Source of the DNA: a virus | Virus genome (UHGV): UHGV-0172607 | Length of the DNA stretch: 12,760 nucleotides | Strand: one strand, 5' to 3' | In this document: positions 6,390-7,076 of the stretch, one piece after another | Numbering within the stretch: position 1 is the first letter of the stretch | How the letters are laid out: the number at the start of each line of letters is the position of its first letter | Translations under genes and position numbers: made by a program | Notes under the pieces: model-generated | The model's database searches: none | Seen by the model: only the letters and a program-made list of their open reading frames with translations | What the model was told of the DNA's origin: nothing

Positions 6390-6564
6390 GTCAATTGGCT
6401 TTGTCCTGCTGGTTGGCACCTGTGGGAATGATGCCTGTGATGCCATTCCGGTAACGGAAAAAATCTGGCCCACAGAACAGGCATGTATGCAGGTGATGGA
6501 GCGCATACAAAAACGTTATCCCAGTGAAATCTTTTATTGCGAAGAGGTATTACGAAATGAATAA
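6382..6564 (+). CDS. Small Cys-containing protein with N-terminal signal-like hydrophobic segment, possible lipoprotein (60 aa)
   Basis: ATG at 6382 overlaps the upstream stop (ATGATTAA); AGGAAA about 10 nt upstream. N-terminus MIKSIGFVLLVGTCGNDAC; four Cys in total. The 6286 start in the track is an upstream extension. Confidence 0.45.
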   Translation: MIKSIGFVLLVGTCGNDACDAIPVTEKIWPTEQACMQVMERIQKRYPSEIFYCEEVLRNE

Positions 6565-6871
6565 ACCAGAGAATAAAGAAATGAAATTCACACCAGTTGA
6601 TATTGATGGCGTCATGGCTAATTTAAAGATGCTGGAACGTATGCACGATATCGTTAAATATGGTATTGAGCATGACCTCACCGCCAGAGAAGTCCGGAGC
6701 ATTATTAACCGTGAAATGAACCAGGTGGAAGCTGCCGTGGCGCTACAAAATGAAGCAGCCCGCGAGGAATACATTCGTCGCAGGCTGGGGCTATCAAATA
6801 AAGATATTCTTACGGATGCTCAGATGGCTGAGGCTTTTGATATTCATCAGGATCTTGGTCTAACAAACTGA
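6557..6871 (+). CDS. Hypothetical helical protein (104 aa)
   Basis: ATG at 6557 overlaps the upstream stop (ATGA) with AAGAGG upstream; the GTG at 6524 is an alternative start. AT-rich with rare codons; no recognisable motif. Confidence 0.5.
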   Translation: MNKPENKEMKFTPVDIDGVMANLKMLERMHDIVKYGIEHDLTAREVRSIINREMNQVEAAVALQNEAAREEYIRRRLGLSNKDILTDAQMAEAFDIHQDLGLTN

Positions 6872-7076
6872 TGGTTTCAGTGATTAGCTGCGATATTTGC
6901 AGGGCGGAATCATTCGTTGTTCTCAATACCGGAGCCTCTGCAGCTACGACTGCAGCGGATTTGAGGATTGTTTTTCCTTCCTCTGCGGTAATCAGCCCCT
7001 TTCTGACAAGGAGTATCAGCAACCTTGAGGCAATGGTATACCCTGCAACATCATAAGGTTGTTCACTGTTTTTCAT
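6810..7076 (-). CDS. Hypothetical opposite-strand protein (88 aa), convergent with and overlapping the upstream plus-strand gene
   Basis: Minus-strand ATG at 7076 preceded by AGAGGAAG with about 6-nt spacing. Balanced amino-acid composition (MKNSEQPYDVAGYTIASRLLILLVRKGLITAEEGKTIL...), unlike the Ser/Ala-rich plus-strand alternative 6871-7056. The track ORF 6810-7160 is trimmed to this internal ATG. Confidence 0.35.
   Translation of the reverse strand: MKNSEQPYDVAGYTIASRLLILLVRKGLITAEEGKTILKSAAVVAAEAPVLRTTNDSALQISQLITETISLLDQDPDEYQKPQPSEHP

Follow-up and report, generated by a model that had tools for sequence, protein, structure and literature searches.

Bacteriophage Mu carries, between gp14 (E15) and gemA, a short interval to which its two reference records assign different coding strands. 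RefSeq (NC_000929.1) places there Mup15/gp15 (NP_050619.1, complement 7896..8162), a gene for 88 amino acids whose long form appears in M64097 under the name 'F-134' and in UniProt as Q38493. In the updated GenBank record of Mu (AF083977.1) gp15 is replaced by 'Mu_54' (AAF01092.2, 7960..8127), a plus-strand frame of 55 amino acids; this annotation update is acknowledged and was reviewed by experienced annotators (PMC9239132). The coding strand is therefore in live conflict between two records of the same phage. A convergent gp14/gp15 pair is also annotated in SfMu and in Yersinia phage Tongde, and no paper on gp15 was found in the literature. Here we describe the corresponding interval of UHGV-0172607, a stretch of 12,760 nucleotides (the window), in which a minus-strand open reading frame (ORF) at 6810-7076 is strongly supported by sequence comparison as a genuine protein-coding gene, the local member of the Mu gp15 family.

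Two further kinds of phage genes are relevant for comparison. Morons, as defined for lambdoid phages by Hendrix and colleagues, are autonomous accessory cassettes. The olg1/sie1 gene of the Pseudomonas transposable phage Fc02 is an exclusion gene of the early region, located on the opposite strand and expressed in lysogeny (PMC9936078). Like gp15, it is a small gene that overlaps one of the early genes, and in both cases the phage is transposable and its early operon runs on the other strand. Unlike gp15, olg1/sie1 adjoins the repressor/ner region rather than gemA, and experiments have demonstrated its expression and exclusion activity, whereas gp15 is known from sequence alone. The two genes show no sequence relationship, nor would one be expected.

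The window is a Mu-like prophage of Escherichia coli with repressor c, ner, transposases A and B, gam, gemA, mor, lysis genes and terminase, and its positions 6382-7300 are 100% identical to the prophage adjoining glnS in E. coli STEC388. As the first-pass annotation had described, all other annotated genes from ner to the terminase are on the plus strand; only the repressor, upstream of ner, is excepted. The minus ORF runs from an ATG at 7076-7074 to a stop codon at 6812-6810, and a Shine-Dalgarno sequence, AGAGGAAG (7083-7090, minus strand), is seen 6 nucleotides before the ATG. It is convergent with the plus-strand gene for the 104-residue gp14 homologue (6557-6871; PHROG 6075, E 2e-42; 71% identity to Mu gp14), and the 3' ends of the two genes overlap by 62 nucleotides (6810-6871). 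The ORF, its ribosome-binding site about 6 nucleotides from the ATG and the extent of this overlap were thus all found where they had been reported. So was the plus-strand alternative, a 61-codon ORF at 6871-7056 which starts in a TGATG shared with the stop of the 104-residue gene. It occupies the same DNA interval as Mu_54, of which it is the exact counterpart, on the strand opposite to gp15. On the other side, gemA (7150-7701, plus strand; Pfam GemA, E 9e-33), the first of the gemA-mor pair, is divergent from the minus gene, and their start codons are 73 nucleotides apart.

The minus-strand product matches PHROG 8747 with residues 1-86 on profile positions 1-86 of 88 (E 6.2e-26). In a tblastn search it matches the minus strand of Mu at 7902-8162 with 52.9% identity over 87 amino acids (E 1e-21). 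Mu gp15 is likewise 88 residues long, 53% identical and alignable end to end, and it lies in the same place between gp14 (E15) and gemA, on the opposite strand and with the same 62-nucleotide overlap with the 3' end of gp14. The Shine-Dalgarno sequence, the predicted terminator and the upstream inverted repeat described below are all shared with the window. The two genes differ in that nucleotide identity over the first 66 codons is about 62% and the central and C-terminal parts of the proteins have diverged. The National Center for Biotechnology Information pipeline PGAP has annotated the minus gene in this very prophage (WP_079916120.1). As the minus ORF is the already annotated gp15 of Mu, it is not new as a gene. 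The convergent layout is common to Mu, SfMu, Tongde, IMG/VR, Salmonella and E. coli prophage loci. Mu, SfMu and the Salmonella relatives have a stop codon in frame that excludes a longer, GTG-initiated version of the minus ORF (116 amino acids), so the start of the 88-residue form is the right one.

ORF length alone does not put this gene beyond chance, as about 18 other minus-strand ORFs of at least 88 amino acids lie inside genuine plus-strand genes of the window. It is the comparative evidence, rather than the ORF itself, that does so. For the comparison of frames we used 34 loci encoding 13 distinct proteins and representing five lineages: the window type, the Mu/SfMu type, the Salmonella type, the Stx1_JNE122137 type and the D108 type. 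Of the 34 loci, 33 have an open minus ORF with its ATG and Shine-Dalgarno sequence; the exception has lost the C-terminus to an insertion sequence (IS). The convergent overlap with gp14 is present in all five lineages (20-62 nucleotides). The plus-strand ORF is not conserved from start to stop: its longest version has 61 amino acids in the window, 55 in Mu, 24 in Salmonella, 7-32 in the Stx1_JNE type and 42 in D108. In the Salmonella lineage this frame is interrupted by a stop codon and lacks an ATG; it is fragmented, again with no ATG, in the Stx1_JNE and D108 lineages, and in Mu it ends five codons early. The first-pass annotation had named homologues with a preserved plus frame and a broken minus frame as the finding that would speak against the minus gene; we see the reverse, the minus frame being kept and the plus frame broken.

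The third codon positions of the plus shadow frame and the minus gene coincide, so codon periodicity cannot decide between them and the ratio of non-synonymous to synonymous substitution rates (dN/dS) by the Nei-Gojobori method (NG86) barely separates the two frames. In divergent pairs it is 0.13-0.37 for the minus frame and 0.21-0.57 for the plus frame. In this comparison, which the first-pass annotation had suggested, the minus frame is favoured in most divergent pairs, while the separation of the frames is poor. For this reason we did not rely on dN/dS by frame and used other tests.

A codon log-likelihood score (coding versus shadow) was trained on 19 genes of the window and tested by leaving out one gene at a time. 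True frames scored +22 +/- 5.5 and were all positive, while shadow frames scored -26 +/- 7.5 and were all negative. Across the lineages, scores range from +7 to +41 for the minus frame and from -13 to -56 for the plus frame. When only the sense codons of the plus ORF are scored, the values are -9.5 for the plus and +5.4 for the minus frame in the window, and -11.7 and +14.8 in Mu. In such exact intervals the minimum for true genes is +1.4 and the maximum for stop-free shadow windows is -11.6. Codon usage is moderately decisive for the window alone and clear for the lineages taken together, and coding-like codon usage was not found for the plus ORF.

Other tests point in the same direction. When lineages are compared, BLOSUM62 gives 162-178 for the minus frame, as opposed to 101-132 for the plus frame. 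Conservation of the DNA is highest at the YDVAGY codons of the minus gene, and in four of six representatives these codons fall outside the plus ORF. Over 6872-7076 the plus strand has a purine fraction of 0.449, smaller than in every one of 110 windows taken from plus-strand genes (mean 0.540), whereas that of the minus strand, 0.551, is typical for a gene. When the minus protein is fixed and its synonymous codons are resampled, the plus frame is fully open in 14% of cases for the window and in 30% for Mu, so the existence of the plus ORF needs no special explanation; for the window alone, ORF openness cannot settle the strand. The plus ORF has no PHROG or Pfam match and no Shine-Dalgarno sequence, and an AlphaFold2 (AF2) prediction of its product has a predicted local distance difference test score (pLDDT) of 49.5, a value obtained from the single sequence with no alignment given and hence not like-for-like with that of the minus protein. 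We judge the plus 61-codon frame to be the usual open shadow of a coding frame and non-coding. The earlier view that the minus ORF is real and that the Ser/Ala/Thr-rich plus frame is less protein-like is strongly supported by these comparisons of frames, which also favour the minus-strand annotation of RefSeq over the Mu_54 of GenBank.

The conserved core of the protein comprises the N-terminal 45 residues or so (YDVAGYxIASxLLxLLVxKGIITxEEGxxI), and nine family sequences with 46-99% identity to the window protein share 23 N-terminal residues without exception. With an alignment of nine sequences, AF2 gives a mean pLDDT of 71.8, rising to 83-87 over residues 11-40, and places helices at residues 10-25, 31-47 and 61-73, followed by a disordered acidic/proline-rich tail. 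This tail is the part encoded in the overlap with gp14. The product is thus predicted to be a small soluble three-helix protein with a conserved N-terminal helical hairpin. Frameshift variants found in the Stx1_JNE-type and Mu lineages have an alternative C-terminal half and leave the N-terminal 45 residues unchanged, in agreement with the helical hairpin being the conserved core. Each of these variants is a singleton, while the common forms have about 30 members each. The SHOCT-like models of Pfam are each matched by two of eight relatives (best E 0.0014 and 0.14), which we consider a lead only.

Phages of the Stx1_JNE and D108 types have no BLAST similarity to the window gp15 in either protein or DNA. 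At the equivalent locus they have a minus-strand ORF that shares an N-terminal motif with gp15. The 79-residue ORF of the Stx1_JNE type is related to gp15 with an hhalign probability of 95% (E 1.8e-8), and the window protein matches PHROG 32893 with E 1.3e-7. The 119-residue ORF of D108 matches the Stx1_JNE ORF in BLASTP (E 3e-7), with PHROG cross-hits as well; its direct similarity to gp15 is weak (E 0.004, probability 8.5%). The motif [YFL]D[VI][AT][GA][YF]..[AV][SG].L[LMV]..L[VFI]..G[LIV]I is found in all of them at the same locus. We propose a wider gp15 superfamily uniting PHROG 8747, PHROG 32893 (79-82 amino acids, Stx1_JNE122137 type) and PHROG 38610 (119 amino acids, D108 type), whose probable members share this motif at one locus. 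The latter two families have the locus, the strand, the convergent overlap with a gp14 gene (PHROG 6075) and the N-terminal helical-hairpin motif in common with gp15, while overall identity is only 17-25%, and the D108 ORF differs by an acidic N-terminal extension of 26 residues. In the D108 record (GQ357916.1, approximately 7853-8212) this ORF is unannotated; it fills the gap of 376 nucleotides between gene 14 and gemA and has its own predicted terminator.

The signals expected of an independent gene are also conserved in part. A purine-rich GAGG/AAGG motif is located at an equal distance from the ATG in the Mu, Salmonella, Stx1_JNE and D108 relatives. Downstream, a putative intrinsic terminator of the minus-strand transcript (6746-6788, minus strand) starts 22 nucleotides past the minus stop codon, inside the coding sequence of the gp14 homologue where it encodes the AREEYIRRRLG motif. 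It consists of a core stem-loop (6757-6786) followed by CUUCAUUUUGU. A GC-rich hairpin with a U-rich tract on the minus strand is seen in all five lineages; in four of them the folding free energy is -17 to -22 kcal/mol with z-scores of -2.3 to -3.9. Compensatory changes are found in three of the 12 hairpin pairs. The share of terminator cells that pair is 95.8% for minus-strand RNA and 79.2% for plus-strand RNA; minus-strand RNA pairs better because G-U pairs turn into A-C mismatches on the opposite strand. In D108 the gp14 peptide AHNNIVCRELG replaces AREEYIRRRLG and the hairpin is still kept. A terminator scan detects the hairpin independently in D108 and in the Salmonella lineage, and the equivalent site of Mu (7839-7873) carries a TransTermHP annotation. 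Rfam searching matched no family. These observations suggest a conserved strand-specific terminator, predicted to serve the minus gene.

All gp15 clusters come from Muvirus phages and prophages of E. coli, Shigella, Salmonella and Yersinia. DNA resembling the region was found in 76 of 5,426 complete E. coli genomes. A scan of one genome per species gave pattern matches, none of them encoding a gp15 relative, and a plasmid search gave no match. Besides five relatives, our exhaustive HMMER search of 1.84 billion representative sequences gave one match to a MucBP-repeat protein, which proved spurious on inspection. gp15 is always accompanied by gp14 (PHROG 6075), and phages without gp14 are also without gp15; PhiR68_1 and a prophage of E. 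coli RM9088 have no part of the gp14/gp15 module. Among the Yersinia phages, gp15 is present in vB_YpM_5 and vB_YpM_6 and absent from vB_YpM_3, while in vB_YpM_23 it was removed by a deletion of about 224 nucleotides between CTGAT repeats (excerpt 1495-1510), which left gp14 and the gemA hairpin intact. Plaque formation and lysogeny are seen with both vB_YpM_23 and vB_YpM_3, as with their siblings that carry gp15 (PMC10434027). As these phages are viable without the gene, gp15 is dispensable. In a Salmonella Aberdeen contig an IS with a Transposase_mut gene (IS256-type; excerpt 3236-4444) is located between the gp14 and gp15 homologues and has replaced the C-terminus of gp15.

Taken as a whole, these data are probably best explained by a genuine gp15-family gene forming a self-contained cassette within the rightward early operon, with a moron-like accessory character. 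The cassette comprises its own Shine-Dalgarno sequence and ATG, a frame of 88 codons and its own predicted terminator antisense to gp14. Transcription from the rightward early promoter would have to pass through the cassette in the antisense direction; for that reason expression of the minus gene would be expected mainly under repression of the early promoter, i.e., in the prophage state, and convergent transcription would shut the gene off after induction. Its product may then act as a dispensable accessory factor in host or prophage interaction. Expression of a moron-like gene in the lysogen, which the first-pass annotation had put forward beside regulation of the pair by transcriptional interference, is plausible; a literature search for transcriptomes or proteomes of Mu-type lysogens gave none.

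The conserved terminator, patchy presence and dispensability all fit a moron-like accessory cassette. As with morons, gp15 is present in some close relatives and absent from others, can be lost, and has a terminator of its own, in this case a predicted one. It differs from them in that our promoter search found none, in a base composition only slightly unlike that of the surroundings, and in coming and going together with gp14, inside which its terminator lies.

Several results weigh against the explanation we prefer. A consensus scan of the five lineages revealed no sigma-70-like promoter upstream of the minus gene, and the best scores of a position weight matrix promoter scan (6.7-9.6, at positions that are not conserved) are no better than those of shuffled sequences, with their mean of 8.3; there is only a weak -10-like hexamer, located just 3' of the upstream inverted repeat. 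The literature search gave no transcript, translation or phenotype data on gp15. The family is narrow, with about five clusters at 50% identity in the HMMER search, and the rare frameshift variants imply weak constraint on the C-terminal half of the protein. The codon score of the window minus frame over the plus ORF interval, although positive, is weakly so and near the bottom of the true-gene range, and the separation of frames by dN/dS is weak, as noted. No transmembrane segment was predicted in the minus protein. Foldseek found nothing below E 2.8 in the PDB, where a search by sequence gave nothing below E 0.2, and in BFVD its sole match was Mu Q38493, with no other structural neighbour. 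PADLOC gave no family at E <= 0.1 for the window, Stx1_JNE and D108 proteins, and the Pfam SHOCT and SHOCT-like models (PF22746, PF20612) reached 16 bits (E 0.009), short of the cut-off of 27. A role in host interaction would be assigned by analogy only.

A more specific version of the cassette reading goes further than these data, and we consider it rather doubtful. According to it, the gp15 family is a conserved, fast-evolving antisense cassette located at the boundary of the Mu early operon. Translation of the cassette would be confined to times of early-promoter silence, and the lysogen would gain a new property from it. This property may be exclusion of other phages or interference with them, or modulation of the constitutively expressed gem operon, and convergent early transcription may serve as the off-switch at induction.

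The next alternative accepts the minus gene as real and takes its role to be mainly regulatory for gemA-mor rather than moron-like. The candidate target is an inverted repeat at 7109-7128 (plus strand), found by scanning between the minus ATG and the gemA Shine-Dalgarno sequence and consisting of GGCGGTG-N6-CACCGCC followed by CCCTTTTCT. A small DNA- or RNA-binding protein could act at this repeat in the divergent region of 73 nucleotides, or leftward transcription itself could interfere with early transcripts reaching gemA-mor. gp15 is always directly upstream of gemA and divergent from it, and the repeat is exact in all 34 loci with the gp14/gp15 module, though its loop and flanks vary. It would fall in or beside the 5' leader of the minus gene. 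In the Mu GenBank record a semi-early gemA promoter is placed across the start of gp15, and constitutive expression of the gem operon in lysogens has been reported (Paolozzi and Ghelardini 1992, as cited in PMC3820752).

The repeat is absent from the RM9088 prophage. In PhiR68_1, which has neither gp14 nor gp15, the sequence AGCGGTG-N6-CACCGCT followed by TTTT is located upstream of gemA, so that the outer pair is changed in a compensatory way and the hairpin with its T-run is preserved. A compensated repeat in a phage without gp15 makes the repeat look gp15-independent, and we have down-weighted it as a gp15 operator. It looks like a plus-strand terminator, attenuator or RNA 5' structure belonging to gemA, and it may attenuate early transcription before gemA-mor is reached. 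Moreover, the predicted long helical hairpin of gp15 is not a typical helix-turn-helix, the phages with gp15 deleted still run lytic and lysogenic cycles (PMC10434027), and conservation at the protein level points to selection on more than the act of transcription. We regard a mainly regulatory gene as unlikely.

Some observations were made on the neighbouring genes. The gemA gene of STEC388 is 70 nucleotides shorter (STEC388 excerpt 7769-8250) and annotated as frameshifted, while that of the window is intact; the window is thus not identical to STEC388 beyond approximately position 7300. Some Salmonella prophages contain a second backward gene (111 amino acids, no Pfam match) between gemA and mor (excerpts 2052-2387), which suggests that this neighbourhood tolerates backward-facing insertions. 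Directly after mor, in the place of the Mu early-operon terminator, the window has a clean intrinsic terminator, GAAGCCGG-TAAA-CCGGCTTTTTTT (8153-8178, plus strand). The next gene in this phage is that of a GH108 lysozyme, with no separate C gene between.

We hold it to be very improbable that the minus ORF is no more than a remnant, decaying or neutral, which has no current function and is kept only by its linkage to gp14 and gemA. The gene is dispensable, an IS insertion and frameshift variants of it exist, and no promoter was recognised, all of which such a remnant could show. Against this, the ORF is intact in all but one of the loci compared, even between lineages whose nucleotide sequences differ by about 40% or more, the N-terminal residues mentioned above are invariant, the Shine-Dalgarno sequence and terminator are conserved, and dN/dS between lineages is in the low range given above for the minus frame.

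We give hardly any credence to the reverse assignment, in which the plus ORF at 6871-7056 is real and coupled to the gp14 homologue, and the minus ORF is its open shadow. An equivalent ORF is annotated in the curated, updated Mu record, and TGATG coupling with a single direction of transcription would make a parsimonious operon; with the plus protein fixed, the minus frame is open in 46% of synonymous resamplings. However, coding on the plus strand is largely refuted by the broken frames. In addition, the codon scores of the plus ORF are shadow-like in every lineage (-9.5 to -56), the YDVAGY codons mostly lie outside it and the purine loading is wrong for a plus-strand gene. Nor is it credible that both strands encode proteins, at least in the window and Mu lineages, since for the plus frame, open in both and annotated by someone as the minus frame is, openness at a level expected by chance is the sole backing, its codon usage resembles that of a shadow frame also where no stop interrupts it, and it is lost in three lineages.

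For a textbook phage such as Mu, two public records thus disagree on the coding strand, and our comparison clearly supports the minus strand, i.e., the original gp15. This implies corrections to GenBank Mu_54 and to the D108 record, where the ORF is missing. What is added here is a resolution of the RefSeq/GenBank conflict, a proposed link between three PHROG families, a previously unannotated homologue in D108 and a predicted strand-specific terminator within gp14. Apart from this value for annotation, gp15 is an ordinary small hypothetical phage gene. Overall, the otherwise unidirectional early operon of Mu-type phages appears to carry one self-contained backward cassette with its own predicted terminator. 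The cassette is a well-defined candidate for a function expressed in the prophage and for regulation by convergent transcription, and natural deletion mutants exist in vB_YpM_3 and vB_YpM_23, to be set beside vB_YpM_5 and vB_YpM_6.

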